Positions 2,884-33,593 of a stretch of 64,000 nucleotides of DNA are shown here, in pieces (positions within the stretch are counted from its first letter, which is position 1; every line of letters starts with the position of its first letter). The translations under genes were made by a program, and so were the position numbers. The stretch comes from Candidatus Omnitrophota bacterium (GTDB taxonomy: Bacteria; Omnitrophota; Gorgyraeia; 1-14-0-20-64-10). Under the pieces are notes generated by a model. The model was given only the letters and a program-made list of their open reading frames with translations, did not search any database and was not told the DNA's origin. The stretch is taken from positions 148,873-212,872 of the forward strand of contig JAHFFE010000001.1 in assembly GCA_023248155.1 (NCBI GenBank). The letters are read 5' to 3'.

Positions 2884-2886
2884 GAG

Positions 2887-3369
2887 TTATTCACGGGTGC
2901 GCAGCGCTTCCCGTAAATCAGCGGCGAACGGTTCAGATAAGGGTTCGAAATGAAGCCCGGCAAAAAACCGGCGAGGTTCTTTTTCACCGGCCGGCATCTC
3001 CTTGATCCAGACGACTGTGGCGCGGACCGGGGCAGCCGCTTCGACGGAACGATCCGGAAAGGCAATCTCCAGTTCCAACAGCGATCCGACCGGAATTTTT
3101 TCCAGAATCATGACGCCGATTCCGGACCGGCTGATATTGTCGGTAGCCGCCTGGGAAGCGGGCGCTGCCGCTGATTCAGGCATCCGGCGATAGCGGACCG
3201 TCCAATCAACCCGAAAACGGGGCGCGCGGCGCGAATCGGATCTCATCCAAAGCCGGCGCAGCCGTCCCGTCGGAACTTTGCCTTGCTCGACCAGTTTTTC
3301 TTCACGCACGACAACGCTTAAAATTAAAAAGCTCAACACCACAGCGCCCATTCCAAAAATCGGGAACAT
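2887..3369 (-). CDS. PilZ domain protein (c-di-GMP binding)
   Basis: N-terminal TM segment, then an RxxxR motif (RRAPRFR) and D/NxSxxG motif (DNISRSGIG) characteristic of PilZ. Confidence 0.65.
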   Translation of the reverse strand: MFPIFGMGAVVLSFLILSVVVREEKLVEQGKVPTGRLRRLWMRSDSRRAPRFRVDWTVRYRRMPESAAAPASQAATDNISRSGIGVMILEKIPVGSLLELEIAFPDRSVEAAAPVRATVVWIKEMPAGEKEPRRFFAGLHFEPLSEPFAADLREALRTRE

Positions 3370-4218
3370 TTAACAGCTCCTTTTTTTCAACGGCGTATTG
3401 TCTACCCAGGCCATCAGATCGTCGAACACTTTTTGTCTGCCGGTTTCATTAAAAATTTCATGAAAAAAACCGGGATATCCCCGGTAATCGGCCTGTTTGC
3501 AGTGACGTGCGAATTGTTGAGAGGCGTTCGGGCTGCAGATCGGATCCGATTCCCCCTGCAGAATCAGGCACGGGATCGTGATTTGTTCCGCGTAGGCGGC
3601 CGAATGGGCCAGCGCTGCGCGCAGCGCGACGGCCGCGCGCGCCGTAATGACGCTGAAAATCAACGGGTCCGTTTTGTAGTCGTTCACTACTGTCGGATCA
3701 TGGGATAAAAATCCAGGCATAACGACGTTGGGCAGATGCGTGGTCGGAACGATCCCGGATAAAATCTCAGCCACCCGTATTTTCAGCGCCGGTATTTTTT
3801 GCACCAGCTCCAATGCCGGCGCCGACGCAATGACGGCTGCCAATTTATTGCCATGCTGTGCGGCATAGGCCAGTACAATCAGTCCGCCCAGGCTGTGCCC
3901 GATTAAAACAACGGGCAGTCCCGGATTTTTCACGCGCGCATGATCGATCAGCAGATCCAGATCATCCAGATACTCCTGGAACGAACGAAAGTCGCCGCGC
4001 CGCCCTTCCGAATGGCCGTGGCCGCGGTGATCGATCGCCCAGACATCGGCGCCATCGGCCGAGAGGATGCCGGCCAGTTCTTCATACCGCCCGGAATGTT
4101 CGGCCATTCCATGCGCGATCAGCGCAACGAAACGGATTGTTTTTTGTGCCGGCCAATGCCGGAAAAAAAGCCGGAGTCCGTCGGCGGAACAGAGGAAATT
4201 CTCGTCGGCGTGCGTCAT
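3370..4218 (-). CDS. alpha/beta hydrolase, lysophospholipase / monoacylglycerol lipase-like
   Basis: GHSLGG nucleophile elbow, HGMAEHSGRY region, 282 aa. Confidence 0.8.
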   Translation of the reverse strand: MTHADENFLCSADGLRLFFRHWPAQKTIRFVALIAHGMAEHSGRYEELAGILSADGADVWAIDHRGHGHSEGRRGDFRSFQEYLDDLDLLIDHARVKNPGLPVVLIGHSLGGLIVLAYAAQHGNKLAAVIASAPALELVQKIPALKIRVAEILSGIVPTTHLPNVVMPGFLSHDPTVVNDYKTDPLIFSVITARAAVALRAALAHSAAYAEQITIPCLILQGESDPICSPNASQQFARHCKQADYRGYPGFFHEIFNETGRQKVFDDLMAWVDNTPLKKRSC

Positions 4219-5996: not shown

Positions 5997-5999
5997 GAA

Positions 6000-6782
6000 T
6001 TAGCGGTCTTCAAATTTCGGCGGGCGTTTTTCAAGAAACCCGCGCAACCCTTCTTTCATGTCGTAGGTTTCGCAGACTTCGCCGAACAGATCGGCCTCCC
6101 ATTCCAACGCTTTTTCCAGCGGCATCTCGAGCCCTTTGCGGCCCAGTTTCAGAATCCGTTCGATGGCCGGCCGGCTCTTGGCGGCGATTTTCTTGGCCAT
6201 TCCCTGAGCTTCTTTCATCAACTGGTCTTCCGGCAGCGCCTTGCTGACCAACCCGATCGCTTCAGCCGTTTTGCCGTTGATCATGTCGCCGGTGAGGCAG
6301 AGTTCGAGTCCTTTGGAAAGCCCGACGATCCGCGTGAGCCGCTGCGTGCCGCCGAATCCCGGGATGATTCCCAGATTGATTTCCGGCTGGCCGAACCGCG
6401 CCCGCTCGTTGGCCAGGCGGATGGTGGCAGCCATCACCAGTTCGTTGCCACCGCCGAGGCAGTGGCCCTGGATCACGGCGATCGACGGGATCGGCAGGTT
6501 TTCCAGCTTGCTGATCACCATCTGACCCAGCGCGGAGGCCTTGCGGCCTTCGGCGGCGCCGTTGATTTCGGAAATTTCCTTGATGTCGGCGCCGACGATG
6601 AAAAACGATCCGGTCGTCGTGATGATCAGCACTTTCACATTTTTATCAACCGCGATCTGATCAAAAAATGTATTCAGTTCAGTCAGCACCGCGCGAGAGA
6701 GCATATTGGCCGGCGGATTGCTGATCGTCAGCGTGCAGACTTTATCCTGAATGGAAGATGCTAAATATTGAAAATCAGCCAT
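6000..6782 (-). CDS. enoyl-CoA hydratase/isomerase (crotonase family)
   Basis: 260 aa; crotonase fold residues (GGGNELVMAATIRLANERARFGQPEINLGIIPG). Confidence 0.85.
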   Translation of the reverse strand: MADFQYLASSIQDKVCTLTISNPPANMLSRAVLTELNTFFDQIAVDKNVKVLIITTTGSFFIVGADIKEISEINGAAEGRKASALGQMVISKLENLPIPSIAVIQGHCLGGGNELVMAATIRLANERARFGQPEINLGIIPGFGGTQRLTRIVGLSKGLELCLTGDMINGKTAEAIGLVSKALPEDQLMKEAQGMAKKIAAKSRPAIERILKLGRKGLEMPLEKALEWEADLFGEVCETYDMKEGLRGFLEKRPPKFEDR

Positions 6783-6800
6783 GAAACACCCCTTTCTGTG

Positions 6801-8036
6801 TCATGAGTAACTGAAAAAGCCTTGCTTGGTTTTAACGCCCAAATGACCGGCATTGCGCATCGTGCGCAGCCGGTGTGCCGGATGAAAGCGGAAACCCAGT
6901 TCTTTCGTAAACCCGTCGAGTAAATCGACCAACGTATCGATGCCCATTGCGTCGGCGGCATGCAGCAGGCCGCTTTTCGAGGCCGGATATCCCAAGCCCG
7001 CCATCACGCCGATTTCGATTTCACCGGCCGTGGAAATTTTTTCCTGCAGCGTCAGCACTGCTTCGTTGATAATCAGCGCCATCAGCCGTTCGGGTGTGAA
7101 TTGTGTTTTGGGATGGTTCAATTTTTTCTGCAGATCGGCGATTGCCTTGGCCACTTCGGAGTCCGGTTTGCCCGGATCGGACGGTCCGCCCTGCGTGTAA
7201 TCGTAAAACCCTTTGCCGCCTTTGCGGCCCAGCCGCTTCATCTCCTGCAGCGTCAGCCACAGTTCGGCCGGCTTCATCCGGTCGCCGTAACCTTCCCAAA
7301 GCACCTTGCCGGCCTCGGCGCAGATATCGAGCCCGAGCGCGTCGATCAGCGTGAAAGGACCCATCGGCCATCCGGTCGCTTTCATCGCGGCATCGATCTC
7401 TTCGATCGATGCGGCTCCCTCTTGGAGCGCCAACACTGCTTCATTGAGATATGGCATCAACAGCCGGTTGACTAAAAAGCCGGGGCATTCCTGCACGCGG
7501 ATCGGCAATTTCTTCAGGCTTTCGGCCAGAGTGATTACTTCCTCAACCGTTTCGTCGGAGGTTTGCAGGCCCGGGATCACCTCGACCAGCTTCATGATGT
7601 TGGCCGGAAAAAAGAAATGCACGCCGACAACCTTGTCCGGCCGTTGGGTGGCGGCCGCGATCGCCGAGATCGACAGCGCCGACGTATTCGTTGCCAGAAT
7701 CGTATTTTTCGGGCAGGCTTCGTCGAGCGCCTTAAAAATAGAGAGTTTGATATTCATGATTTCAGGCACTGCTTCAATCACCAGATCGACATCCTTGAAA
7801 TCTTCATAGCGCGTGGTCGGCGTGATTTTTTTCATCTGGATTTCCAGTTCTTCGGGCGTCATCCGCTTTTTCGCGACGAGCCGGTCATACACCTTGCGGA
7901 TATTTTCAACGCCGCGCTGAAGCGCTTTATCGTCGATCTCCTTGAGTACCACCGGTATTCCGCTGTATGCGATGATCTGCGCGATACCCGCGCCCATCGT
8001 TCCGCCGCCGACTACGCCTGCCTTGTAAATCGCCAT
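6801..8036 (-). CDS. 3-hydroxyacyl-CoA dehydrogenase, NAD-binding
   Basis: N-terminal GVVGGGTMGAGIAQ Rossmann motif and a C-terminal 3HCDH domain; 411 aa. Confidence 0.85.
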   Translation of the reverse strand: MAIYKAGVVGGGTMGAGIAQIIAYSGIPVVLKEIDDKALQRGVENIRKVYDRLVAKKRMTPEELEIQMKKITPTTRYEDFKDVDLVIEAVPEIMNIKLSIFKALDEACPKNTILATNTSALSISAIAAATQRPDKVVGVHFFFPANIMKLVEVIPGLQTSDETVEEVITLAESLKKLPIRVQECPGFLVNRLLMPYLNEAVLALQEGAASIEEIDAAMKATGWPMGPFTLIDALGLDICAEAGKVLWEGYGDRMKPAELWLTLQEMKRLGRKGGKGFYDYTQGGPSDPGKPDSEVAKAIADLQKKLNHPKTQFTPERLMALIINEAVLTLQEKISTAGEIEIGVMAGLGYPASKSGLLHAADAMGIDTLVDLLDGFTKELGFRFHPAHRLRTMRNAGHLGVKTKQGFFSYS

Positions 8037-8064
8037 CGTTATTTACTCCTTTGCATTAATGGGA

Positions 8065-10104
8065 TTAATCCGCCAGCAATTTCTTGATCGAATCCATCTG
8101 TGCCATGGTTGTTTCTTCGCCGCACCGAATCAATTGGTCGACATTGTAAAATTCCCACCAGTTGATGCGCGGGATCGTCGGGTGCAGCGCTACATCGGCT
8201 TGCGCGCACTGCGCCTCAGCCAGCACATATTCCATGCCCTGGATGGCATGCATCAGAATATCGAACGTGTTGATGTCCAGCCAGCGCATCCAGGCCTGCT
8301 TGAATCGGAAGACCCGGTTTTTCCACCAGCCCTGAAACCGCATTTCGTATGCTTTCTGGGCTTCTTGTACGGCGAACTCCTGGTATTTTGCTTTCATATC
8401 CTGCGGACTGGGCAGCGTGTTCACGGCGATGATTTTCCGCACGCCGGCCTGCCGCAACAAATCCACCGGCACCGGGCTTAAGACGCCGCCGTCGGTCAAA
8501 TACCGTCCGCGCACTTTCAGCGGCATAAAAATTCCGGGAATCGCCACCGACGCGCGCACGGCCGGAACGACCGGCCCCTCTTCAAAAACCACCACTTCGC
8601 GCCGTTTGTAGTCGACGGCAGCGATTTTGACAGGAATTTTCAGATCGCGAAAAGTGCTTTCTCCCAAATGCTGCCGCAGCATCCGCGTAACCTGTACGCC
8701 GGCCAAAATTCCCATGCGTGAGATCGATAAATCCAGCAATTGCAGCAGTGATTTGCGCGTGCGGAACCGGTTGGCGATTTTTTCCAGCGCGACACTGTCG
8801 TATCCGGCGCCCCAGAGCGCGCCGATCAGCGCGCCGATCGAAGAGCCGGCGATAATATCGATGGGAATTCCTTCCTTCTCGAGTGCGCGGATGACGCCGA
8901 TATGCGCAATGCCCATTGCGGCGCCGGAACCAAGCACCACGCCGATCCGCACACCGCCGGTTTCGCGCGCGATCCGCCGGATGATTTTTCCGTAATCGGT
9001 TTGCGTATCGGTCGCGGCACCGACCGGTTTCGGCAGCACCGCCTGAACCTTGGCGCCCAATAGTTCCCCCTGCTCAAGGTCGGAGAGCGCATGAGATCCG
9101 TTCTGCACGATGATGCGCAGCCGTTCTGCCGCCTGCGGAACGGTTTTTTTCAATTCTTCCAGAATGACTCCGGCCCGTTCCAGATCGTGGCGATCTCCGT
9201 GGCAAAGCAGATGGATCTGATCGGCCTGCACCATCGCTTTGAAAACGGCGCGGTCAACGGCCGGCGGCAGATCCACGACGACAAAATGGTACAAATTGGT
9301 CAGGTACGACAACAGATGCGCCAGCAGCGCGGCATTCTCGGAGCTGCCCGGTTCATGCGCGGCATGCATCAGGTCGATGCCCAGCTTCTCGTACTTCACG
9401 ACAGCCGAGGAGGCCTGCATCGGGTCGAATGATTCTTTTCCGGAAAAGACCGGCAGACGGATTCCCAGCCGTCCCTCGGCCCAGTCGCTGGCGGAATCGA
9501 CCAGCACCCAGATCACCTGCTTACCCGTTTCGCGATGAAGCGCGGCGGCCAGACTGGTTGTGTAGAGATGGCGCTGCGCGGTAGCGCAATTGCCGTGGAC
9601 GGAAACCAGCGTTGATTCAAATACTTTTTTGGGCGGAAGATCTTTTTGGCGTACACGCTGTGAAAGCGTGGTCGAAAGCTGAATGCCGACATCAGGGATC
9701 TGTTTTAAAATGGCCTCGAATCCGTCGCGGCTGATCTTGATTAAGATACAGGCGTTGAGCGCTTGCGTGGTGACCGAATGCGGTTCGCGCGTTAAGATCG
9801 ATTTGGTGCCGAAATAATCGCCGCGATGCAGCGTTTCAACCGTTTCTTCCCGGCCGTTGTCGTACCGTACGAAGAGGCGTACACGGCCGCTGACCAACCC
9901 ATAAAAAGTATCGTTCGGGTCTCCCTGCGTATAGAGGATTTCGCCGGTTTCATGTTCGGAGAGGCGCGAAACGGAGGCGACGAAGCCCAGCTGCTCATCG
10001 GTCAGATGAGAGAAGATCGAGATCTGCCTTAAGAACCAGCGTTTGTTGGCTGCGATCGGTTCCGGCGAAACCGGCGGCTGATCGTCTGAAGAAGGCGTCG
10101 TCAT
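8065..10104 (-). CDS. cyclic nucleotide-binding domain / patatin-like phospholipase fusion protein
   Basis: N-terminal cNMP-binding (CAP-like) domain, FGTKSIL region; C-terminal patatin with GxGxxG (GVVLGSGAAMG) and GxSxG (AGSSIG) lipase motifs and a DGG motif (YLTDGGV). Confidence 0.8.
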   Translation of the reverse strand: MTTPSSDDQPPVSPEPIAANKRWFLRQISIFSHLTDEQLGFVASVSRLSEHETGEILYTQGDPNDTFYGLVSGRVRLFVRYDNGREETVETLHRGDYFGTKSILTREPHSVTTQALNACILIKISRDGFEAILKQIPDVGIQLSTTLSQRVRQKDLPPKKVFESTLVSVHGNCATAQRHLYTTSLAAALHRETGKQVIWVLVDSASDWAEGRLGIRLPVFSGKESFDPMQASSAVVKYEKLGIDLMHAAHEPGSSENAALLAHLLSYLTNLYHFVVVDLPPAVDRAVFKAMVQADQIHLLCHGDRHDLERAGVILEELKKTVPQAAERLRIIVQNGSHALSDLEQGELLGAKVQAVLPKPVGAATDTQTDYGKIIRRIARETGGVRIGVVLGSGAAMGIAHIGVIRALEKEGIPIDIIAGSSIGALIGALWGAGYDSVALEKIANRFRTRKSLLQLLDLSISRMGILAGVQVTRMLRQHLGESTFRDLKIPVKIAAVDYKRREVVVFEEGPVVPAVRASVAIPGIFMPLKVRGRYLTDGGVLSPVPVDLLRQAGVRKIIAVNTLPSPQDMKAKYQEFAVQEAQKAYEMRFQGWWKNRVFRFKQAWMRWLDINTFDILMHAIQGMEYVLAEAQCAQADVALHPTIPRINWWEFYNVDQLIRCGEETTMAQMDSIKKLLAD

Positions 10105-10133
10105 GACCTTTGTATGATAACAATCTTGGAGTG

Positions 10134-10393
10134 AAAAGAAAAGCCGACAAAGGACGGCGTGATCAGGCGGTTCGTTCGCTCGCTGCCGGACTGCAGTCGG
10201 CCCGGACTATTTGGGCATTGTGCCCTTCGGCTTGAACCCTGCTTCCCTTTGGGTCTCGGGTGCTGGGGCCTCCTTCCGTGCAGTGTCCACTATTTCGTAG
10301 CCCTGCTTGCTGAAGGGGCGGACAGTGTGTCACGCAAGGGAACTCCAGGCATCGATCCAAAGAGCTTCACGCCAACTTAATCCCTTTGTCGGC
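10134..10393 (-). ncRNA. candidate structured small RNA of about 260 nt, class unresolved (SRP-RNA long form or 6S-like are the leading guesses)
   Basis: No plausible ORF in the 450-nt gap. On the minus strand the 5' end GCCGACAAAGG pairs perfectly with the 3' end CCUUUGUCGGC (11 bp), extended by GGCGUGA/UCACGCC (7 bp). A U-rich tail (CUUUUCUUUUC) follows the 3' arm. A sigma70-like promoter sits 7 nt upstream of the 5' arm. Confidence 0.5.
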
Positions 10394-10400
10394 CACTTCC

Positions 10401-10429
10401 TTTATACTTGATAGCGACTAAAAAAGCAA
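10401..10429 (-). promoter_or_regulatory. sigma70-like promoter for the small RNA
   Basis: Minus strand reads TTGCTT (-35), a 17-nt spacer, then TATAAA (-10), with the RNA 5' end 7 nt downstream; it lies in an AT-rich island within a GC-rich genome. Confidence 0.45.
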
Positions 10430-10535
10430 GGGCAGCTGAAATAATGATTTTGGGATTAAAATGAGGAACTATTTGTTGCAAATTATTTCAAACAACTAGG
10501 GGTTTATAAATACCATAAATATGATATTTATATGA

Positions 10536-10559
10536 TAAAAGTGGTTTAATTAGACCACT
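10536..10559 (-). terminator. weak intrinsic terminator overlapping the era stop codon
   Basis: Minus-strand hairpin AGUGGU-CUAAUUAA-ACCACU followed by UUUUAUCAU. Confidence 0.3.
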
Positions 10560-11475
10560 AAAATCCAATTTCCTTCAAGAATTTAGAGTCCTTTCTCCAA
10601 TTCTTTGCTATTTTAACCCAGAGATCCAGATAGACGGGCCCGTCGAGCAACTTCTCGATCTCACGTCTCGCTTCCTGGCCGATTCTTTTCAGAATAGCAC
10701 CATCTTTTCCGATTAAAATTCCTTTTTGACTGTCCCGTTCCAGATAAATGTTTGCACGGATATAAGTGCTCGACGACTGGTCCGGTTTTTGCCGCGGCGA
10801 AGCAGTGCCCGGGCGCCATTCTTCGACGAGAACCGCCACCGAGTGAGGAATTTCTTCATGCGTGAACAGCAGTGCTTTTTCGCGGATCAGTTCCTGCGCC
10901 AGTACGCGCATCGATGCATCGGTCACCTGATCTGGTGGATAAGCGGCCGGTCCTTCCGGAAGGGAAGCGATCAATAAATCCAAAAGCGGCTGTGTGTTAT
11001 CGCCTTTGAATGCCGAGATCGGAACGATTTTTCTAAACGGGTATGATTTTTGCGCCTCGGCGATCTGCGGCAAGAGGCGGTCTTTCCGGACGCGGTCGAC
11101 TTTATTGATCCCCAGAAATGCCGCCGGCTTTTCTCCGGCCACCGGTTTTGGAAGCAGGCGCAGAAGCTGGCGATCGTCGTCGGTAAAACCGGCCGTTGCG
11201 TCGGTCAGCATCAGAAAAAAATCGGCCTGGCCCAGCGCGTCGCGGGCCGCCTGAATCTGATGTTTCGCCAGCAATGTTTTGGGTCCGTTGTAGATGCCGG
11301 GCGTGTCGAGAAAAAGAACCTGTGCTTCAGGCAGCGTTAATATTCCGAGCAGCTGCTGGCGCGTGGTTTCCGGTTTCGGCGAGACAATCGCGATTTTCTG
11401 GCCCAGATAGCGGTTGAGTAAAGTTGATTTTCCGACATTGGGCCGGCCGAAAATCGCCACAGTTCCGCATCGCAT
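10558..11475 (-). CDS. era: GTPase Era
   Basis: G1 motif GRPNVGKSTLLN, DTPG G3 motif, C-terminal KH domain; 305 aa. Confidence 0.9.
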   Translation of the reverse strand: MRCGTVAIFGRPNVGKSTLLNRYLGQKIAIVSPKPETTRQQLLGILTLPEAQVLFLDTPGIYNGPKTLLAKHQIQAARDALGQADFFLMLTDATAGFTDDDRQLLRLLPKPVAGEKPAAFLGINKVDRVRKDRLLPQIAEAQKSYPFRKIVPISAFKGDNTQPLLDLLIASLPEGPAAYPPDQVTDASMRVLAQELIREKALLFTHEEIPHSVAVLVEEWRPGTASPRQKPDQSSSTYIRANIYLERDSQKGILIGKDGAILKRIGQEARREIEKLLDGPVYLDLWVKIAKNWRKDSKFLKEIGF

Positions 11476-11487
11476 ACTATTACTCTA

Positions 11488-12981
11488 TCACCGCCGGTTG
11501 GATTCGGCGAGCAGTTCATCCACTAATGCGTTGGTTTTCTGGGCCAGAACTCCGTCGTTGTTTTTTAAATCCTGAATGGAAAGAGGGAAGCGGTCGGTCC
11601 AGTTGTGCGGCCCGACGGTGTTGGGCCGGTTGGTCCGGTGGCTGTTGTCCAATCCGAACAGATCCTGATAGGCGATGACGGCCAGCATCGACGGGGAAGC
11701 GCATGTTTTCCGAAGCAGAGCCACGCGCAGCGTATCAACGGACGCCGGCTCTTTCAAGAACCCTTCGTCGCGCAGCGCTTCAGCCAGTTTTTGAAAACGG
11801 ATCGTGTTGAGGTTGCCCAGTTCGCCGGCCAATGTGGCGCAGTCGTGCGTGGTTGTCACGGCAACCGAGTTTTCGGGGAATGAGCCGGTGTTCCAGTATT
11901 CCGCCGAAAAATCGAGCCCGAAAATAATCGGCTTCATGCCGGGAATGCCGGAACGATCACGCAGTTCGTAAACACCGCTGCTGAGCAATCCCAAATCTTC
12001 AGCGACGATCAGCGCTGATTTCTTGGAAAGAACCGGTTCAAATACTTCGTGAATAAAATTATCGCGCGGCCCGTCGCACCAGCGGCCGTCGAGCATCCGG
12101 ATCACCGATTCCACCGGCGCCGATTCAGGAAACGGCAGCGTTTCGCCGGTAATCAGCGGGTTTTCGAGCCAATGTTTTTTCTTCCAGGCTTCGCGGAGAT
12201 CTTTTCCTCTCCATTTTGCCTTGTCCGCCTGCGGCGGGATCCAATAATAATCATACAACGCGCGGAAATGATCGACCCGGATTCCGTCGAACCAATCGAG
12301 CATTCGGTTGACGCGCAATTTCCAAAGCCGATAGCCGCTTTTTTTCTGAGCGGCCCAGTCGTAGGGGTAATGTTCCCAGAACTGGCCGCCCGCTGAATAA
12401 AAATCGGGCGGAACGCCGGTCCGGCCGTTTAAATCGAAGCATTCGCGGTGCGTCCAGACGGCGTCGCTGTCGGTATTTAAATAAAACGACAGATCGCCCA
12501 GAAGAAAAACATTTTTTTTGTTCGCATGCTCGCGGCAGGCGGCCCATTGCTCGTCGAATTTCCATTGAATGAACGAATAAAACATGATCGAGTCGGCCAG
12601 TCGTTCTTCCCATTTGGCTAGCACTTCCGGCTGGCGTTCCCGTAACGCTTTGGGGAATTTTTGCCACCCGCACCGGAAATGATCCCGCAGAGAAAGGAAC
12701 AGCGCGTAATCGCCGAGCCAGTCCTGATTTTTTTCGCAGTAGCGTTCAAATGCCGCGTCGTGGCGGGAAGGTTTTTCTTGTTCCGAGAGAGTCAGGTAGC
12801 GCGGGTTGGCGGCGAACGCGCTCCAGGTATTGTAGGGGCTGGTATCTTCTCCGTCGTTGATCGGCAGCAGCTGGATCCAGCGCAGGCCATGGTCGGCGGC
12901 CCAGTCAATCAGCAGGCGCAGGTCGGTGATGCCATTGGGCAGCGCGTGTAATGGAACCAGAATACCGGCCGATCGTTTCAA
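11488..12981 (-). CDS. malQ: 4-alpha-glucanotransferase (amylomaltase, GH77)
   Basis: N-terminal GILVPLHALPNG...LPINDGEDTSPY typical of GH77 MalQ; 497 aa. Confidence 0.85.
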   Translation of the reverse strand: MKRSAGILVPLHALPNGITDLRLLIDWAADHGLRWIQLLPINDGEDTSPYNTWSAFAANPRYLTLSEQEKPSRHDAAFERYCEKNQDWLGDYALFLSLRDHFRCGWQKFPKALRERQPEVLAKWEERLADSIMFYSFIQWKFDEQWAACREHANKKNVFLLGDLSFYLNTDSDAVWTHRECFDLNGRTGVPPDFYSAGGQFWEHYPYDWAAQKKSGYRLWKLRVNRMLDWFDGIRVDHFRALYDYYWIPPQADKAKWRGKDLREAWKKKHWLENPLITGETLPFPESAPVESVIRMLDGRWCDGPRDNFIHEVFEPVLSKKSALIVAEDLGLLSSGVYELRDRSGIPGMKPIIFGLDFSAEYWNTGSFPENSVAVTTTHDCATLAGELGNLNTIRFQKLAEALRDEGFLKEPASVDTLRVALLRKTCASPSMLAVIAYQDLFGLDNSHRTNRPNTVGPHNWTDRFPLSIQDLKNNDGVLAQKTNALVDELLAESNRR

Positions 12982-13361
12982 ATCCGCCTGCTGTTCTTGG
13001 CTAACCAGTCGGCGACATCCTGAACGGTTTTTTCCCGATCGATGAGGCTTATCAGCAGGTTAAAATTCTGATTCTCAGAGGAAGTCAGCGAATAACCATT
13101 TATTTCGAGAAAAATATCAAAACAGGTCCAGGCCATTCGCTTGTTTCCATCCACGAATGAATGGTTTCTTGCCAAAGACTCCAGAAGGGCCGCCGCTTTT
13201 TCAAAACAAGTTGGATAAAGGTCTTTTCCTCCAAAGGTTGCTTGGGGGCGTGCCAATGCCGAGCGCAACAATCCATCATCTCGAATTCCAGCCGATCCGC
13301 CGGTTTCTTCGAGAATCTTTTTATAGATCCAGAGGACTTGGCGATAGCCAAGATAATTCAT
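12978..13361 (-). CDS. doc: type II toxin Doc (Fic/Doc family)
   Basis: Fic motif HSFVDGNKRMAW; 127 aa; paired with an upstream small RHH gene, overlapping it by 4 nt. Confidence 0.85.
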   Translation of the reverse strand: MNYLGYRQVLWIYKKILEETGGSAGIRDDGLLRSALARPQATFGGKDLYPTCFEKAAALLESLARNHSFVDGNKRMAWTCFDIFLEINGYSLTSSENQNFNLLISLIDREKTVQDVADWLAKNSRRI

Positions 13362-13576
13362 TTAGCAAGACGTTTTAATAACGGAAGATTGCGCTGAATG
13401 GACTGATCGACCACTCGGCGGAATTCCGCGGTAATCACATCATTGGAAAACTGCGCGTCCAGCAAGTGAATCGCTTCTTCCAGCAATTTCGATTGCGGAA
13501 TCCGGCTTTGCTCAGAGAGACGCTTCAGCGTCCTGACTTCTTTGGCGCCCAGCTTGGTTGAGTATTTAATCTGCAC
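13358..13576 (-). CDS. ribbon-helix-helix (CopG/Phd-like) antitoxin
   Basis: 72 aa with an RHH-like N-terminus; GTG start with a GGAGG RBS; immediately upstream of and overlapping doc. Confidence 0.65.
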   Translation of the reverse strand: MQIKYSTKLGAKEVRTLKRLSEQSRIPQSKLLEEAIHLLDAQFSNDVITAEFRRVVDQSIQRNLPLLKRLAK

Positions 13577-13638: not shown

Positions 13639-16600
13639 TTAGGCCATGGACTCGAGGAAGTTTTGGACGGCGTCGAGCGCCAGCGCCACAGGGGAAGGAA
13701 GATCATCGGGATTAAGCCCCAGCTGGCGCAGGCCCTGTTCGCGATTTTGAATGGAGATCAATCGCAGGGTAGGGTTGTCCAGCAGGTTTGAAGCTTCGAG
13801 GTATCCAATGGCATAGCGCTCTCTGGGTACGCGCATCTGCGCGAGTAAACTGCGCAGAGCATCGGCCTGAGCGCCATCGGATAAAATCGCCACGCGCCAA
13901 CCCCATTGCAGCGCCATCGGAATCAGATCAAATGTTTCCGGATTTTCGAACACAAGCACTGTTGATTCGGGAGCCGCCGAAGTGGGGGAATAGAGAACGC
14001 TTAGCTGTGCCAGCGCCCGGTCCTGCGTGTCGCCGGCGGAAACCGTTTCCTCCTGCCCGGCGGACGGGTTGGTATAGACGACGATTGCCGCGTTAAGGTT
14101 TCGCAGTGAGTCGTGCGGCGCGTTGTTGTGCCGGCCGAGAATGACCGGGACTGTTCCGTCGTCAACGGCCCATTGCTGGACATCCATACTGCCGCCCAGC
14201 AAGATCGCTTCAACGGCCCCCGATTTTATCATCGCCTCAGTGACATCCTCGACGGAGGCCTGTTTTTGTCCGGTTTCCGGTTGGCCGACCAGCGATAGAA
14301 AAATCAATTGATTATCACCGGTTCGTCCCAGCGCCGAAAAGGCGGCATAGGTTGTGTTGGGATCCCACCGGGTTCGGTTCGCATAGGCTCCTTCTGAAAG
14401 ATCCGCGTCGGCATTGGCCGCGCCTCCTTCCGTCGGGTAGTGGCGGATTTTTGAAGCAACCGATTTGCCGTCACGCACCAATACCGGTCCCGCCACCGCT
14501 TCCCGAATCCCGTCGGTTTGCGGGACCCCCTCGGTTAATTTCAAGCGGCGCAGGCCGGTTTTTCCGGAATCGGCCGCCTCCAGCACGAAGACCCACGGTT
14601 CTTCGGCCTGCCGCACACCCGGAATCGCGACTAATTTTCCATCGATAATCAGAAAACCGTTCGGTTCCCAGAAATTGGTCTGCAGAGAGTTGGAAGCGAA
14701 AATCGGTTCCGCGTCCAGCGGCAGAGAAAGGTTATTCCACGAAGAGGGTTTATCGATAATTCCCATCAGAGGATCGCCCGGCTGCTGAGTTTTTGTCAAC
14801 CGGCGCAATCCTTTCCATTCCCACGAGCCGTTGATCACCTGGGGGTTCAGCCGTTGGCGGATCAATGTTTTCGCGGGATGAATGAGGACGGCCCGCCCGG
14901 TCAGCGTGCGGTCCGGCCGCTCGATCGAAACGGTTCGGGTTTCTCCATAGGCCGAATCCCGCAGCGGTTTTGGATCTGCCAGCACAACACCCGCTGTCAT
15001 CTCCGGATTTTGGGCCAGCACGGTTTGGCGGATGGTGACGCGCGGAACATTCGGCAGCGTGCCGAACGGATTTTGGAAATAAGCTCCCTGGGTTCCGTCA
15101 ATTTTAATGAAAGCCGGAGGGCGTTCCGGGTCCGGAGCGACGCCGAAAATATTTTCTATGCCGGTAAGCCATTTCAGGCGCAAGCCAAGATAAATCAATG
15201 GTTTGGCCAGCCCATTTAAATTCCAGGTATTGGCTTCTCCTTGGGATAGAACGACGCCCGCGTCTCGAATCGCGCTGACCGCTTCCGGTGTCAGCCGATT
15301 GAGCGGTGTTCCATGTGAACGCGCGCCGGGAATCAGCCGGAATCGTCCTATAGCCTGGTACTGCCGAAGTTTTTCGTAAATCGGCTGTTTTTCCAGAAGC
15401 CGCCGCGCGTCGTCCAGAGAAGCATCATTCATGACGCCGTTGTCGACCTTGACGATCATGGAAATAGTGAGTGTTGGATTGACGGAGAGCAGCAGTTCGG
15501 CCAGTTTCAAGCTGCCGGCGATCTCCGCGTTGTTATCCGTGATATGGACAAGCGATTGACCGGGTTTCAAAATATCGGCGATGAAAGAGTGGATAAACCG
15601 CTCACCGCCGAGCGCTTCGGAAAAATCAGTTCCCATTCGCGGCAGAACATAGTGCATGACGCCGCCGGCCTGCTCGATTTCACGGGCCAGCGCCGGTTGT
15701 GAATAATCGATCAGGTTCAGCGCGATGGCCAGCCGCAGCCATGGCAGAAGTTTTTTGCCCGGATTTCTCCGCAGCTTGACGGGGTTATCCGTGAAAGTTT
15801 CAGGCTGGTTTTGCAGAAGAGTCCGGATCGCGGCAGCGGCGGCCCGGTTGCCGGATTCATTGGAAAAACTCAGCGGATTGGCCAGCGCCTGCTCCAGTAA
15901 TTGCGCGGGGATATGCGCTCTTGAGAGACTTGGCGAGATCAGCGGCACCAGCAGGCGAGGCAGATCCCGGTAAGACCAGCGGTAAATTTCTGATTCGGAA
16001 AGATTCGGGAAAAGCCGTTGTCCGGCGCTGTCCTCCGCGTAACTGAGGGATCTCATCAAGGACTGAATCTGTTTAAGCCCCAGATCTTCGGCGGTAACGG
16101 GAGCGCTGGGCTGCTGCCGCGTGATTTGTTCGGCGGCTCCGCGCAGAGTTTTCTCCAGCGCCGCGATCCACTCGTTCTCCACATAATCGCGCAGAATCTC
16201 CTCGGATATTTCATTGCGCAAGAAAGGACCGGCGTTGTATTCCGAAACAGAAAGCGGAGGAAGCGCTGTTTTTTCCTGCGGCGGAGCGGCCATCAGCGCC
16301 AGAAAAGCTTTTACCCAGCGGATATCTTTTTCCTGGGCATCCTCGGTTGGCGATTGATCCAAAAACGGAGAAATTCGCGGATCAATCTGTCCGTCTCGAA
16401 CGAACGCCAGACGGAGAATTTCGGCGGCTGTTTTAGCAGGTGCGGCGCCTTCCAACAGCATTGGTTCGAATTGTTTTAGCTTGTCCTGATACAGCTGGGG
16501 AATGTTCACCGGCCTGCCATCCGCGGGTTTTGCTTCTCTTAAAACAGGACGAATCGCGTTCCAAAAACCGACTATATTTTGATCCGGAGAGAATTTTTGT

Positions 16601-19600
16601 ACGGCGGTTCCCAGCAAGCTGTCAAAACCGCGGTTCCCTTCACGGATTTCTCTTTGCTGGTAGGTTGTAAACAGTTCCAGCAGTCTTGCGATGGAAGGAA
16701 GAAGAGAAACCGAATTCGTTTGCGCGAACAGAAAATCAGCTGCTTCCAGCCGTTCCACAACGTTTCCATTTAACTGATCAATCAATTGTTGCGCGCGCTC
16801 GATCGTAAGAACGGGTTTGGCGCCGGATTCAGATCGGGGATCTTTTATTCCGCGAATAAGAATGGGTGGTTGAGGCCAGCCGGCTTCTCCGCGGGCTTTA
16901 TTTTCACGGACAATTAAATCTCTGTAACGATGCTGTTGGAGAGTGTCTTTACTCAGACCAAGCCGATCCGCCAAAGCGTCTAGTTCAGTGGTTTCCCCCG
17001 GATGTTCGTGAAGCATCTGTATAATTTGCTGATGATTTCTCTGCCACCGGGCATTTCGACCCGATTCTTCCAGTCCGGCGGATGTTTTATCGGGGGGCAG
17101 AACTGTGCGGGAAGGTGAGAAATCAACAACCGGGCCCCTATCCTTGGGGAGTTCCTGTTCGATCTGTTTCGCGGCTTCTGAGAAAAGATGCTCGAGTTCA
17201 TCCGCGGCCGATAAATCAAGAGATTCTTGCAAAACGGGGTAAGCTCTTTGCCAAACCAACCGGGCGCTGCGAAAATCCCCGAGAGGATCTTGTTCCGGGA
17301 ACCGCCTTTTCAAATCATCGAGGAACCGGTTAAATGTCTGGTCGGCGGCATCGCGCAGCACCAGATTATGAAACAACAGCAAAACCGTCCAGACCTCATT
17401 CATCGTGAAAGAAGCTCCCCGGTTGGCGCGCCGCTCTATTTCCTGAACGGCCAGCATCGTCGAGTCTCCGTCGTGGGCGCTTTCGGCGAAGAACTCCACC
17501 GCGTCTCGCGGGGGAACAATCTGCACTCTCCAGATTTTCTCGCTCCGCAGAAGCTTCGCATTGTCGGTTTCCCAGAAAATCGCTGTGTAGCCATCGGACG
17601 GTTTTTCTCTCGATAAAATGGCGCGGAACCGATCCGTGATCTCGAGGCGGACTTCCAGCGCGGCGAACGCCTCATGAAGTTTCTGAGTTTTTCTTAAGGA
17701 TCCCGACAAATCTTCCGGCAGAATCTTGTTGAGCGTTTGTGAGGAAATAGATGCCACGCCGTCTTCAACTGTAAATTGGACTTCTTTCCGGCCGTCTTTT
17801 TTGCGGGGGCCCCCGCCTCTCAAGCCTGCCGCGATGGTTTCCAGCAAGACGGGGATAATCGAGTTGACATCAGCGGCAACTGCTTCTTCTGATTCGTCAG
17901 CTTTTTCTGAATTACCGATTTGAACCTTCGTTAATTTCGTTTCAGCCAATTTTTCCGGCAGCGCTTGATTAATGCCAGCCAACAGCTCTTTCCTGTTGGA
18001 AAGGAAAGATTGGCTGGGCGAGCCCCCAAACAGCCGCGCGGCCTCGCGCTGAGTCAGTTGAATGTCTCCTTCTCGATTTTCCGCTACCAGCGCGGCCACC
18101 AGGCGGGCCGCCAGATCATCCGGGGTTTCTTCCAACCCGGAGGTGGCCTGTTTCAGCAGAGTCAGCGCGGCGGCGAACTGGCGTTCCTCATCGGTTCCGA
18201 TCCGGCTGAATATAATTCCATTGGCGATTGCTCCTGCGATGAGCGGGTCCGCATGAAAATGGGAGATGAGTTCCGAAGAAAGAGCCTCTCGAATTAAACC
18301 GATTGCCGGAGCAGGACCCAAGGCAACTGCCAATCGATGCACGACGCTGCCCGCCAGAACGGTTCTTTGTGGAATGACTTCGGGAATAGTTCCCGTCAGA
18401 TAAGGCGCCAGCGCTGCGGCCATGAACCGGCCGATCTCTTGCGCAACTTCTGCATTGTCATAGCCGAGCGCTTTCACGCGTTTTTCCAGTGCCGGTTCGC
18501 TTAAGAGTTGTTCCACTTGTAGTTCGGTGGTGGTCGGTTGAAAACGCATTCCCTTCAACTCTCGGCCTTTATATTCATAATGCTTACCATTATCCGTTGA
18601 GGTAGTAACGCGGCCTACCTCAAGAAATCCAAGGCTGCGTGAGACGGGTCTGCCGTTAGCAGCCAGATCACCGCTGATTCCCGGTCCAAAATAGAAAAAG
18701 GCCGCATTTTGTACGCCATGAATTGTTCCGATGGCGCTGAGTTCTCCCAACAGAGAGGCCCGTCCTCGGTTGTAAACGGAAACAACAGCGCTGGCTTTTC
18801 CACCCAGCCGTGCTGAGAGCTTTTCTTGAAGAACCGCGCTCAACGAGTAATGATCAAACGCCGGCAGGTAAGGGGCCGGCTGCGGATTTCCGGTTTCTCC
18901 GTCGGATGCTTCATCATTGACGGCCGCAACAATCGAAACAACCACCCGGCTTAACCGATCGCCGGACAATCCCGTGTCGTCGACCATTTGGGCAATCTGA
19001 TTAACGAGCGCAGCAACAATCAGTTCCGGATTTTTATTGGGATCCAATGTTCCGCCGGTGGTCGACCATTTTTGCATTGGCGGAGCAGTGCGGCGCTCCA
19101 CCTTGTTGTCGGGCCCAGAGAGTGCGACCGAAAATCCTTCCCGTGTGATATCGACACCGACGGCGTAGCGCTTGTTTCCATAAGCGGCCCGAATTTCAAC
19201 CGCTTCCGGGCTCAATTTTTTAGGCGGCGGAGATGGCGGCACAGGATTTCTGAATACAAAAACGCGGCGCGTACCCTCGCCCGGCGCGTAAGTTTCTTCC
19301 GCTAACGAAAAGAGTCCTTCACGGTATGCCCGCCTTAGCAACGGGGTCCCCATCTTTCCACCCGCTTTTTTTCCGGCCGCGGCAGCGGCGGATTGATCTT
19401 TATCCAATTGCCCGAACAGTTCTCGGACCAAGTCCATTGGGTCATCAGCCGGCTGCGATTCGCCCAGCGATTGTTCAAGCAGTTCTTTGAGTGAGAAAAA
19501 ATCCTTTGCCTGGTCCTCAAGCACCGCCCTTAACTCCGGGCCGTTCCATGTCAGTGTGACGCGGGTGTTGAGTTGCGGCTGATATCCGTAGGCGTGCTGA

Positions 19601-20154
19601 TTTGTATTGTTGATAATTTCGGCAAGGTAGAGCGTAACAGATGCTTTTGCGACGGGAAGGGATTTCTCACCCAGTGCTTCTACCAATAATTTCTGAATTT
19701 GTCCCAGAGTAAGATCTCCGGGAATAATTAATTGCCGCGGAGCGATATCAATCCAGGTGGTCTTTGGCTGGTCGGGCCTGTCGCTGACTTCAACGGAATA
19801 GTCCATGTCGGGCGCGGAACTTCCAAAAAGCTCAACCAGCGCTTTTTCTAGTGGGGCAGGGGAAATAAAGAAAACTGCCGCTTGGGTATCTCCCACTTGT
19901 TTGTACAGACGATAAATGACCGTTCCGTCGGTGGGAACATAGCTCAGAAGCTGATCAAAGGAAGCGTTGGGATTTGTTTGTTCCTCCGCGCCGGCAGCAG
20001 GGGAGAGTTTTTTCTCGAGCGCGGATTGTGCAGGCCCTTCAATGGTTTGCCGCAACATCTGATTCGATGCCGGCAGGAATGCGCTGCCCGATCCTTCGCC
20101 GGAAAAGCAAAGAATCAGTATCGCCGCGATCAAATTTTGAAAAGTTTTATTCAT
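13639..20154 (-). CDS. giant secreted multidomain protein (2171 aa): signal peptide, ROK/actin-like ATPase domain, possible DUF89-like domain, C-terminal NAGPA-like phosphodiester glycosidase domain
   Basis: N-terminal signal peptide MNKTFQNLIAAILILCFSG. Residues ~300-580 resemble a ROK/BadF sugar-kinase ATPase fold (AVGVDITREGF...GPGISGDL...LGFLEVGRV). C-terminal residues ~1800-2000 resemble NAGPA/DUF2233 (RTRWDPNTTYAAFSALGRTGDNQLIFLSLVG...AILLGGSMDV). Confidence 0.7.
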   Translation of the reverse strand: MNKTFQNLIAAILILCFSGEGSGSAFLPASNQMLRQTIEGPAQSALEKKLSPAAGAEEQTNPNASFDQLLSYVPTDGTVIYRLYKQVGDTQAAVFFISPAPLEKALVELFGSSAPDMDYSVEVSDRPDQPKTTWIDIAPRQLIIPGDLTLGQIQKLLVEALGEKSLPVAKASVTLYLAEIINNTNQHAYGYQPQLNTRVTLTWNGPELRAVLEDQAKDFFSLKELLEQSLGESQPADDPMDLVRELFGQLDKDQSAAAAAGKKAGGKMGTPLLRRAYREGLFSLAEETYAPGEGTRRVFVFRNPVPPSPPPKKLSPEAVEIRAAYGNKRYAVGVDITREGFSVALSGPDNKVERRTAPPMQKWSTTGGTLDPNKNPELIVAALVNQIAQMVDDTGLSGDRLSRVVVSIVAAVNDEASDGETGNPQPAPYLPAFDHYSLSAVLQEKLSARLGGKASAVVSVYNRGRASLLGELSAIGTIHGVQNAAFFYFGPGISGDLAANGRPVSRSLGFLEVGRVTTSTDNGKHYEYKGRELKGMRFQPTTTELQVEQLLSEPALEKRVKALGYDNAEVAQEIGRFMAAALAPYLTGTIPEVIPQRTVLAGSVVHRLAVALGPAPAIGLIREALSSELISHFHADPLIAGAIANGIIFSRIGTDEERQFAAALTLLKQATSGLEETPDDLAARLVAALVAENREGDIQLTQREAARLFGGSPSQSFLSNRKELLAGINQALPEKLAETKLTKVQIGNSEKADESEEAVAADVNSIIPVLLETIAAGLRGGGPRKKDGRKEVQFTVEDGVASISSQTLNKILPEDLSGSLRKTQKLHEAFAALEVRLEITDRFRAILSREKPSDGYTAIFWETDNAKLLRSEKIWRVQIVPPRDAVEFFAESAHDGDSTMLAVQEIERRANRGASFTMNEVWTVLLLFHNLVLRDAADQTFNRFLDDLKRRFPEQDPLGDFRSARLVWQRAYPVLQESLDLSAADELEHLFSEAAKQIEQELPKDRGPVVDFSPSRTVLPPDKTSAGLEESGRNARWQRNHQQIIQMLHEHPGETTELDALADRLGLSKDTLQQHRYRDLIVRENKARGEAGWPQPPILIRGIKDPRSESGAKPVLTIERAQQLIDQLNGNVVERLEAADFLFAQTNSVSLLPSIARLLELFTTYQQREIREGNRGFDSLLGTAVQKFSPDQNIVGFWNAIRPVLREAKPADGRPVNIPQLYQDKLKQFEPMLLEGAAPAKTAAEILRLAFVRDGQIDPRISPFLDQSPTEDAQEKDIRWVKAFLALMAAPPQEKTALPPLSVSEYNAGPFLRNEISEEILRDYVENEWIAALEKTLRGAAEQITRQQPSAPVTAEDLGLKQIQSLMRSLSYAEDSAGQRLFPNLSESEIYRWSYRDLPRLLVPLISPSLSRAHIPAQLLEQALANPLSFSNESGNRAAAAAIRTLLQNQPETFTDNPVKLRRNPGKKLLPWLRLAIALNLIDYSQPALAREIEQAGGVMHYVLPRMGTDFSEALGGERFIHSFIADILKPGQSLVHITDNNAEIAGSLKLAELLLSVNPTLTISMIVKVDNGVMNDASLDDARRLLEKQPIYEKLRQYQAIGRFRLIPGARSHGTPLNRLTPEAVSAIRDAGVVLSQGEANTWNLNGLAKPLIYLGLRLKWLTGIENIFGVAPDPERPPAFIKIDGTQGAYFQNPFGTLPNVPRVTIRQTVLAQNPEMTAGVVLADPKPLRDSAYGETRTVSIERPDRTLTGRAVLIHPAKTLIRQRLNPQVINGSWEWKGLRRLTKTQQPGDPLMGIIDKPSSWNNLSLPLDAEPIFASNSLQTNFWEPNGFLIIDGKLVAIPGVRQAEEPWVFVLEAADSGKTGLRRLKLTEGVPQTDGIREAVAGPVLVRDGKSVASKIRHYPTEGGAANADADLSEGAYANRTRWDPNTTYAAFSALGRTGDNQLIFLSLVGQPETGQKQASVEDVTEAMIKSGAVEAILLGGSMDVQQWAVDDGTVPVILGRHNNAPHDSLRNLNAAIVVYTNPSAGQEETVSAGDTQDRALAQLSVLYSPTSAAPESTVLVFENPETFDLIPMALQWGWRVAILSDGAQADALRSLLAQMRVPRERYAIGYLEASNLLDNPTLRLISIQNREQGLRQLGLNPDDLPSPVALALDAVQNFLESMA

Positions 20155-20175
20155 CGGTTTTTCAATGATGGATAT

Positions 20176-20214
20176 AAAAACCCTCCTCTGTTTATGGGTG
20201 AGAGAAGGGTTTTT
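20176..20214 (-). terminator. terminator-like hairpin in the leader of the giant gene
   Basis: AAAAACCCTCCTC - 13-nt loop - GAGAAGGGTTTTT with A/T flanks, about 20 nt upstream of the start codon. Confidence 0.4.

Positions 20215-29793: not shown

Positions 29794-33593
<3,800 letters not shown>

Follow-up and report, generated by a model that had tools for sequence, protein, structure and literature searches.

Giant proteins of the Omnitrophota have been described as long exported chains that carry HATPase, methyltransferase, ROK, receiver, NUDIX and HAD domains (10.64898/2026.06.07.730766). Whether such giants act as one chain or are cleaved has been left open, no cleavage points being known, which blocks their structural analysis (West-Roberts et al. 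2023, 10.1101/2023.11.21.568195). Exported giant multi-enzyme proteins of uncultivated bacteria are, altogether, a class that has been described only recently. We analyzed a stretch of 64,000 nucleotides (nt) from a Candidatus Omnitrophota bacterium (contig JAHFFE010000001.1; hereafter the window), in which a single gene on the minus strand, 13639..20154, encodes a protein of 2171 amino acids (aa). Its closest known kind is the Omnitrophota multi-enzyme 'metabolic cluster' giant proteins. As in these, a signal peptide is followed by many distinct enzyme-type and regulatory domains that tile a single chain, and the ROK-like module of the window protein is directly homologous to ROK modules within giants of 1.7-5 thousand aa (P0010, P0013 and P0015).

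The explanation that we favor, at a probability of roughly 60%, is that the protein represents a lineage-specific, modular, Sec-exported family with a DUF89 core and pseudo-enzyme-like partners, which evolves at its junctions. A signal peptide and a conserved leader would come first, followed by independently folding modules strung on the junctions. The conserved heart would be a DUF89 phosphatase whose catalytic set is complete; GHKL-like and ROK-like modules come before it, and in the window protein and its close ortholog it is fused directly to a NAGPA-like module through a decayed junction. Around DUF89, the ROK-like and NAGPA-like modules would most likely recognize sugar or sugar-phosphate, or have diverged chemistry, and the job of the whole may be to strip phosphate from sugar-phosphate or phosphoglycan substrates outside the cytoplasm. 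The gene itself would change as whole modules are gained, lost and replaced at junctions. We infer the export, the substrate class, the binding role of the degenerate modules and the role of the junction from the observations described below.

Junctions and modules of the protein

An earlier sequence-only reading had described the gene as one uninterrupted open reading frame (ORF) with a signal peptide, and this holds: the frame begins with ATG, contains zero internal stops and opens with a signal-peptide-like segment. A word-indexed search of 5.8 billion proteins returned a sole close relative, P0001, a 2884-aa ortholog (contig L001, gene 2718-11372, from run SRR22388058, which is unrelated to the window) that is 75% identical overall and 72-87% by module and shares the module order, plus two extra modules. 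A word-indexed search with aa 300-680 as the query gave zero matches and missed even P0001, which is ~75% identical there, so negatives from that tool should be read cautiously. Further relatives were gathered with the DUF89 core and the N-terminal half of the protein; they form a small sample from a handful of metagenomes. The family is unnamed, its members being listed as 'hypothetical protein'. The features of the window gene, in order from the N-terminus, are as follows.

13639..20154, minus strand: whole ORF, 2171 aa plus stop, from the ORF listing
20074..20154, minus strand: signal-peptide-like N-terminus, aa 1-27, the only hydrophobic window of the protein, with like starts in relatives
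19981..19998, minus strand: junction 1, AAGAEE, aa 53-58, closing the conserved leader; it aligns to the second leader junction of P0011 and L093
19219..19830, minus strand: GHKL/HATPase_c_2-like module, aa 109-312, with N-box E179/N183 and G2-like G266/G269 kept
18139..19218, minus strand: ROK-like actin-fold module, aa 313-672, with degenerate catalytic motifs (Foldseek, AlphaFold2 (AF2), motif alignment)
18127..18144, minus strand: junction 2, TSGLEE, aa 671-676, between the ROK-like and the small helix-turn-helix (HTH)-like domains
17896..18126, minus strand: small helical HTH-like domain, aa 677-753, predicted local distance difference test (pLDDT) score ~80
17083..17895, minus strand: module M2, aa 754-1024, no Pfam match, 37% identical to P0008, ratio of nonsynonymous to synonymous divergence (dN/dS) 0.19
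17065..17082, minus strand: junction 3, SAGLEE, aa 1025-1030; P0001 has an extra 235-aa module exactly there
16444..17064, minus strand: module M3N, aa 1031-1237, helical; its match to a winged HTH is weak (HTH_11, E=0.015)
14998..16443, minus strand: DUF89/ARMT1-like metal-dependent phosphatase core, aa 1238-1719 (Pfam, AF2, Foldseek, residue alignment)
14977..14997, minus strand: degenerate junction, TAGVVLA, aa 1720-1726, at the DUF89/NAGPA-like boundary; relatives read AAGLE[E/G/A]
14065..14976, minus strand: NAGPA-like module of the phosphodiester glycosidase family, aa 1727-2030 (Pfam 42 bits), without the DGGGS loop
14047..14064, minus strand: junction 4, SAGQEE, aa 2031-2036, before the C-terminal domain
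13642..14046, minus strand: C-terminal domain, aa 2037-2171, a beta-alpha repeat by low-confidence secondary structure

The giant is thus a chain of at least eight modules with the junction [A/S/T][A/S/T]-G-[L/A/Q]-E-E. All G-x-E-E sites of the window protein (aa 55, 673, 1027 and 2033) and of P0001 (six) lie at module boundaries, and the two extra modules of P0001 are bracketed exactly by junctions. In the 29,280 aa of 20 related proteins, G[LA]EE occurs 77 times against 2.7 expected and 0-9 in letter permutations; single proteins reach 11 copies (0.18 expected) and 9 copies (0.06 expected). The G, E and E are fixed by the search pattern; position 2 is L in 65 and A in 12 of the 77 sites, and in 71 of them A, S, T or G stands at position -1. 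The motif-bearing relatives comprise P0002-P0008, P0011, P0017, P0020, P0025, P0028, nine metagenome loci and two tandem neighbors. In the structural model, junction 2 falls at residues 615-618, the sole gap of low confidence, which separates two confidently modeled domains. The protein P0024 (2024 aa, with a serine hydroxymethyltransferase module) contains five copies of GAEE, against 0.11 expected, rather than GLEE, and its leader ends in SGTEE, which indicates that position 2 of the junction varies by lineage. A literature search on the junction motif or on bacterial polyproteins returned nothing relevant.

The N-terminus of the window protein, MNKTFQNLIAAILILCFSGEGSGSA, has the charge/hydrophobic/small-residue (n/h/c) layout of a Sec signal peptide, and no transmembrane helices are found beyond it. 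A lipoprotein signal was rejected by eye, as Leu precedes the sole Cys. Relatives start with a signal peptide and a leader of the form ...PxPAxALRPxxAGLEE...L..EL...AGLEE, the exceptions being contig-end fragments and fragments lacking a true start. We infer that the protein is exported by Sec. Among the ORFs checked elsewhere in the window, no other GLEE-leader protein was found.

The junction is conserved in its DNA as well, with the consensus GCC GGG YTG GAG GAR. In a test on 58 junctions from 14 genes, codons were redrawn from each gene's own usage in 5000 simulations. The sequence GGAGG is present in 38 of the 58 junctions against 16.4+-3.5 expected, and the L/A/Q codon ends in G in 52 of 58 against 31.6, values reached in 0/5000 simulations in either case; the first Glu (E1) is GAG in 42 (30.0 expected) and the Gly is GGG in 25 (14.8 expected). 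This codon bias is absent from non-junction [LAQ]EE tripeptides. The same-codon fraction of junctions is 0.54 within and 0.475 between genomes, with 0.38 expected, and identical junction 15-mers recur three times each in L086 and L093, while five nearly identical ones occur in P0006. The four junctions of the window gene differ at many synonymous sites, which makes a DNA repeat a weak candidate for the sole cause of its GLEE motifs. Another lineage provides a counterpart: P0015 (L103 330-10583, 3417 aa, 46% GC) has the ROK module as well, and its modules are separated by AASPV, encoded at 9 of 15 sites by the identical GC-rich 15-mer GCCGCCTCGCCGGTG (chance ~0.001 per site). Within two mismatches there are 15 copies in P0015, on the coding strand only, with AT-rich and unconserved flanks.

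Synonymous divergence (dS) between the window gene and P0001 is lowest, at 0.41-0.57, in the DUF89 core, the NAGPA-like module, M2 and the small HTH domain. The ROK-like module and the C-terminal domain come next at 0.76-0.82, and the GHKL-like module and M3N stand at 1.9-2.7, with values up to 3.2 if the leader is counted. In seven of the eight flanking genes compared it is 0.38-0.61, the small ORF being at 0.95. This mosaic indicates that whole modules have different histories. M3N, found outside the window protein only in P0001, is highly diverged there (dS 2.7, against a genome background of 0.4-0.6). Across the family, modules recombine freely; the repertoire includes methyltransferases, a receiver, a GlpX-type fructose-bisphosphatase (FBPase), metallophosphoesterase, WD40, FTHFS, ROK, HATPase and two kinds of C-terminal domain, and the relatives P0002-P0005 have the DUF89 core without NAGPA or ROK. 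The dN/dS values against P0001 are 0.10-0.38 over all ten segments and 0.10-0.28 in the recognizable modules (0.20 in the NAGPA-like one). Such purifying selection implies that the degenerate modules are functional, though probably not as the enzymes that their names suggest.

In other genomes, genes with GLEE junctions also stand in tandem. On L099, 757-5493 and 5529-10442 encode proteins of 1578 aa, with a formate-tetrahydrofolate ligase domain, and 1637 aa, with a GlpX FBPase domain. On L100, 3126-5969 and 6001-11535 encode a 947-aa protein and the 1844-aa P0020, with receiver and ROK modules.

As for what the junctions do, a serious possibility, to which we nevertheless give less than even odds, is that the protein is a polyprotein and the junction a protease site, so that after export cuts at each AGLEE would free the leader and the module proteins. 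Cleavage would be compatible with the modular explanation and would add a mechanism to it, with the DUF89 and NAGPA-like modules staying joined since their junction has decayed. The strictness of the peptide motif, a -3/-1 small-residue pattern that resembles peptidase sites and the location of the junction in a flexible gap are in its favor, as is the decayed TAGVVLA exactly between two modules that always travel together; moreover, the motif trails the signal peptide even in single-module relatives (L092, 537 aa), where it joins nothing. However, the family members scanned contain no protease domain, no conserved protease neighbor was seen, and non-random synonymous codons are unexpected of a purely peptide-level signal. 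Those codons, the higher same-codon fraction and the identical 15-mers speak instead for recombination, in which the junction, as a short in-frame direct repeat, would be a crossover point for swapping domain cassettes between paralogs. Any exchange at the junction remains in frame, the module insertions and deletions between the window gene and P0001 fall exactly at junctions, dS is mosaic, several genes are in tandem, and AASPV is a nearly invariant 15-mer in another lineage. Still, we give this possibility, too, less than even odds: 12-15 nt is short for homologous recombination, the window gene's four junctions differ synonymously as noted above, and the GLEE lineage conserves amino acids more than nucleotides. 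Neither a protease nor a recombinase was found in or beside any locus seen. The two roles are not mutually exclusive.

It is improbable, by comparison, that the junctions are translational punctuation, in which a Shine-Dalgarno-like GGAGG would pause ribosomes between modules, for folding or export, or drive internal initiation. The enrichment of GGAGG at junctions would fit, and so would the variation at position 2, where every amino acid that occurs (L, A, Q, M and V) is NNG-coded, so that G-GAG-G is preserved. Yet start codons are not in excess 3-13 nt past the junction (3-5% in frame, with a background of 6%), M and V are not enriched in the amino-acid profile, and 151 of the 198 GGAGG copies lie outside junctions, the total not being depleted (177 expected); in addition, the GCCGCCTCGCCGGTG repeat of the second lineage is not Shine-Dalgarno-like. 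Internal translation starts after the junction, and a Shine-Dalgarno-like sequence unique to junctions, were therefore both rejected, internal initiation and a junction-specific pause being poor explanations where starts are not in excess and GGAGG is common elsewhere.

The DUF89 core and its partner modules

Among the modules, DUF89 is the firmest domain assignment by sequence and by structural model, and it appears to be the only proposed enzyme that retains a complete set of catalytic residues. The sequence-only reading had pointed to a DUF89-like segment, and each line of evidence agrees. Pfam ARMT1-like/DUF89 (PF01937) matches aa 1438-1648 at 37.3 bits in the whole protein and 42.0 bits in a tile, against a cut-off of 25; among NCBIfam models, a weak DUF89 match was the only one for the giant. 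An AF2 model for which six family sequences were used reaches pLDDT 75-95 over aa ~1236-1686, a confident prediction, and in a Foldseek search of the PDB with this model the top 20 hits are all DUF89, with E down to 1.4e-8 and template-modeling (TM) scores on the target up to 0.68. Residues N1480, D1483, D1540, N1541, D1577, E1640 and K1661 show no variation among the six family members aligned. In the fission-yeast enzyme Duf8901, N192, D195, D248-N249, D286, D363 and K401 are catalytic by mutagenesis and BeF3 adducts (PMC9062747). The first five window residues match N192, D195, D248, N249 and D286 in order and spacing, while E1640 and K1661 were assigned to D363 and K401 via the GEAN and LRLKW motifs, with the order kept and the spacing shorter (21 residues from E1640 to K1661, against 38 from D363 to K401). 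The module thus shares with the known DUF89/ARMT1-like enzymes (PH1575, AF1104, yeast YMR027W, S. pombe Duf89/Duf8901) both the fold and the constellation of Asp nucleophile-Asn, metal-binding Asp, Lys and general-base Asp. Unlike those enzymes, which are stand-alone and cytosolic, it is embedded in a multi-module protein with a signal peptide; it also has ~200 aa of extra helical N-terminal region and only 10-16% identity to solved structures. Besides its DUF89-containing polyprotein, the genome of P0003 has another ARMT1-like gene (383-393 aa), which stands alone and lies immediately upstream of the former (L082 1-1152; L083 2186-3367), with prfB and secA following at these loci.

The ROK-like module had been proposed to be a sugar-kinase-like ATPase. 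The homology part of that proposal is upheld and the kinase part is not. The AF2 model of the module (pLDDT 75-95) retrieves only ROK proteins among the top 50 Foldseek hits in the PDB (E=4.4e-13, TM score on the target up to 0.78), with repressors in the lead and kinases also among the best matches. Pfam ROK (PF00480) reaches 14.6 bits, under the cut-off of 22.9, whereas the homologous modules of P0013 and P0012 clear it with 75 and 24.3 bits, and an exhaustive phmmer search ties the segment to such clear ROK modules, for example that of P0013 (ROK at E=8.8e-21). ROK kinases are characterized by a DxGGT phosphate-1 motif, a catalytic Asp in N-D, a GTG phosphate-2 motif, ExGH and a zinc-binding Cys motif. 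The aligned modules of P0013, P0010b and P0015b carry the canonical GGTK, AGPVD, END..A..GE, GTGIN and ELGHN, whereas the counterparts in the window protein, P0001 and P0006 read DITREG, AAVND, YNR..S..GE, GPGIS and EVGRV. In the window module the catalytic Asp of 'END' is accordingly replaced by Arg (YNR), DxGGT by DITREG, GTG by GPG and ExGH by EVGR, and the motif alignment shows no zinc Cys motif. The module is thus, by sequence, a true homolog that is not a plausible kinase, and in both sequence and model it resembles ROK sensor and repressor domains more closely than kinases. It shares the actin-like fold with the sensors and repressors Mlc, Lmo0178 and MecR2, and kinase chemistry is expected in neither. 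It departs from the ROK family at large in the missing zinc-binding Cys motif and ExGH His, the altered phosphate-1 and phosphate-2 loops, the score below the Pfam cut-off and the extracytoplasmic context that we propose for it.

A comparable split applies to the phosphodiester glycosidase claimed for the C-terminal region: its family membership stands, and its catalytic loop is changed. Pfam NAGPA (PF09992) matches aa 1826-2027 at 37.7-42 bits, where the cut-off is 25, and the match takes in positions 18-169 of the 169 in the profile; by this hidden Markov model (HMM) match the module is a true homolog. In a comparison profile made from three annotated phosphodiester glycosidases recovered from plasmids, 'vvvDGR...alnLDGGGS' aligns to 'SLVGQP...AILLGGSMD' of the window protein, and P0001 is alike, so that the DGGGS loop reads LLGGS and the DGR motif reads VGQ/VGR. 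The DGGGS loop is strictly invariant from bacteria to humans, and D286A, G288A, G289A and S290A abolish activity (PMC13474241). R2018, a possible counterpart of the essential human R316 that lies ~30 residues past the loop, is 32-33 residues after L1985/L1986, in a part that no reliable alignment covers. Known members of NAGPA/DUF2233 are normally extracytoplasmic, as we propose for the window protein. Unlike them, the window module lacks the invariant DGGGS and DGR, and it has no pairwise similarity to PDB entries or plasmid-encoded NAGPA members: tblastn of the segment against plasmids gave no match, and PDB sequence searches with the ROK-like, GHKL-like and NAGPA-like segments, as single sequences or profiles, gave nothing meaningful.

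The GHKL-like module is a fourth recognizable module, which the sequence-only reading had overlooked. Its scores for Pfam HATPase_c_2 (PF13581, cut-off 27.4) are 22.4 bits in the window protein, 24.2 in P0007, 21.2 in P0028 and 29.3, above the cut-off, in P0005; altogether, four homologous modules give matches that stay below it. By alignment and by hhalign against SpoIIAB, the N-box residues E179/N183 are invariant and G266/G269 are G2-like, while the G1 box DxGxG is replaced by EDQAKDF, without glycines. Foldseek against BFVD returned a 179-aa phage HATPase protein (E=1.1e-3, probability 1.0, TM score 0.51). The small HTH-like domain is present as two tandem copies in P0011, with a weak CtsR-HTH match there, and the C-terminal domain is common to the C-termini of P0006 and P0007 by local phmmer. 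The earlier observation that large stretches have no recognizable family is borne out, for example by M2. The motif strings that it quoted are likewise present (GVDITREG at aa 333, GPGISG at 490, EVGRV at 512, DNNAE at 1540, GEANTW at 1639 and LLGGSMD at 1985), and in the Pfam/HMM scan that it recommended DUF89 and NAGPA come out above the cut-off and ROK does not.

Three recognizable modules, the GHKL-, ROK- and NAGPA-like ones, thus appear to lack canonical active-site residues and yet to be kept by selection, and two of the three supposed enzymes (the ROK- and NAGPA-like modules) are probably pseudo-enzymes under the same constraint. This bears on the proposal that three active enzymes, a sugar kinase, a phosphatase and a phosphodiester glycosidase, work one after another on glycans linked by phosphodiesters or on material resembling glycogen. 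In its favor, each of the three homologies is genuine, it would make chemical sense for a glycosidase to uncap a substrate before the phosphate is taken off, and malQ is adjacent in two genomes, those of the window and of L001. The link to malQ is weak, however, as the gene is absent at that position in the more distant L085. Furthermore, the ROK catalytic Asp and ATP-binding motifs and the NAGPA DGGGS loop are lost, an extracytoplasmic kinase would be without ATP supply, and P0002-P0005 carry the core alone of the three; the combination of activities is mostly unsupported, and we give it little credence. An effector role, in which the protein or its freed modules would be delivered into a prey or host cell, is also unlikely. 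Such a role has been proposed for giant Omnitrophota proteins. The family has a repertoire that overlaps with that of the Omnitrophota multi-enzyme giants (10.64898/2026.06.07.730766) and is cytoplasm-like in spite of the signal peptides (receiver, GlpX FBPase, methyltransferases, metallophosphoesterase, WD40, HATPase, ROK). The window, however, encodes a complete metabolism of the free-living type, including complex I, ATP synthase, beta-oxidation and porins; beyond Sec, no secretion system was seen near any locus, and the gene lies among housekeeping genes in conserved synteny.

Several observations weigh against the explanation that we favor, a DUF89 phosphatase core with pseudo-enzyme-like partners outside the cytoplasm. 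Modules of the GHKL, ROK, HTH, receiver and methyltransferase types are normally cytoplasmic, which makes an extracytoplasmic site odd, and no conserved neighbor points to a substrate. The DUF89 module has a Glu (E1640) where the yeast enzymes have Asp363, albeit a conservative change. The alignment that reveals the loss of DGGGS scores only 10-13 bits locally, although the positions implied by Pfam and the spacing of R2018 agree with it, and the AF2 model of the NAGPA-like region, from two sequences only, is unusable (pLDDT ~25). Finally, a module without its canonical residues may still retain some activity.

The locus and its neighbors

The genes around the giant are conserved between the window and L001, with nuoJK, NUDIX, a small ORF, the giant, malQ, era, a cyclic nucleotide monophosphate (cNMP)-patatin gene and beta-oxidation genes in common. 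In the more distant genome of L085, a gene of 858/885 aa (P0005/P0029), composed of HATPase_c_2, DUF89 and C-terminal domain modules, occupies the matching position and is a syntenic ortholog; the locus is therefore a conserved one that was enlarged through module addition. A comparison of synteny had been suggested in the sequence-only reading, and an assembly chimera is refuted: P0001 comes from an unrelated run with matching neighbors and the same module order, GC along the gene is even (0.52-0.59), and dN/dS is 0.1-0.28 in every recognizable module. That the gene is a chimera or a pseudogene can be dismissed for practical purposes. The conserved small ORF and NUDIX gene upstream look cytoplasmic, and no functional link between them and the giant was found. 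The giant gene had no match in PADLOC, whose matches in the window are an inserted Doc toxin and a weak NUDIX only, and its identity as a defense system was rejected on this basis.

A Doc/Fic toxin gene lies within 12978-13576 on the minus strand (127 aa, Pfam Fic 1.5e-18) and overlaps an antitoxin-like 72-aa ORF upstream. The pair is inserted between the giant and malQ and is missing at L001, where malQ directly follows the giant. In front of the giant, the sole strong Shine-Dalgarno sequence (AGGAGG) is 31 nt upstream of the ATG (within 20155-20195), an unusual spacing; only ATA, ATC and ATT occur in frame between the two, and the ATG is conserved in P0001.

Elsewhere in the window, atpD (32184-33593, plus strand) encodes an ATP synthase beta subunit that is at most 75% identical to the 80 best GTDB matches listed (68-75%). 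These span Nitrospirota, Fibrobacterota, Sumerlaeota, Omnitrophota (one, at 71%), Bdellovibrionota and others, and, among the AtpD matches listed, the host genome seems to represent a poorly sampled deep lineage. No rRNA was found within the window. For four ORFs, 37582-38832, 42273-43526, 48134-50422 (minus strand) and 50439-51839 (416, 417, 762 and 466 aa), Pfam gave no family at E<=1e-5; of these, 37582-38832 has a signal peptide and no GLEE leader.

Comparison with known systems

MARTX toxins and viral polyproteins also carry independent modules on a single chain, with short recognizable sites in flexible linkers. The window family differs from them in its motif and in having no protease domain in the members scanned. 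Closer at hand are the Omnitrophota giants, which are 10 thousand aa or more in length, so that the window protein, at 2171 aa, falls below their range. It differs from them further in having no transmembrane helices past the signal peptide, in its housekeeping neighborhood and in its explicit junction motif. The words 'polyprotein' and 'linker' are absent from both of the papers on such giants (10.64898/2026.06.07.730766 and 10.1101/2023.11.21.568195), and the 2026 text is also without 'junction', 'motif' and 'cleavage'.

Tentatively, we propose that exported multi-enzyme proteins of bacteria, both giants and those somewhat smaller, may be built with a lineage-specific, in-frame 'junction code' (AGLEE in the lineage of the window protein, AASPV/GCCGCCTCGCCGGTG in that of P0015), conserved both as peptide and as DNA, which would serve as a crossover point, a cut site, or both. 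If this is true, it would amount to a domain-level cassette system without a described counterpart, and the code would supply the missing map of cleavage points and boundaries for giants of the Omnitrophota type. Since the motif falls where modules meet, where they have been gained or lost and in a flexible gap between domains, it makes the question of a single or a cleaved chain testable. The junctions provide coordinates for splitting giants in structure prediction, peptides to look for in metaproteomes, and DNA sites at which to look for recombination breakpoints. The modules themselves show that domain names alone can mislead, two of the three 'enzymes' probably being pseudo-enzymes, and their retention by selection suggests a binding role around a DUF89 phosphatase that would be active outside the cytoplasm. 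The value of the finding, set beside the known multi-enzyme giants, lies in an architecture that is delimited by junctions, exported and cassette-like.

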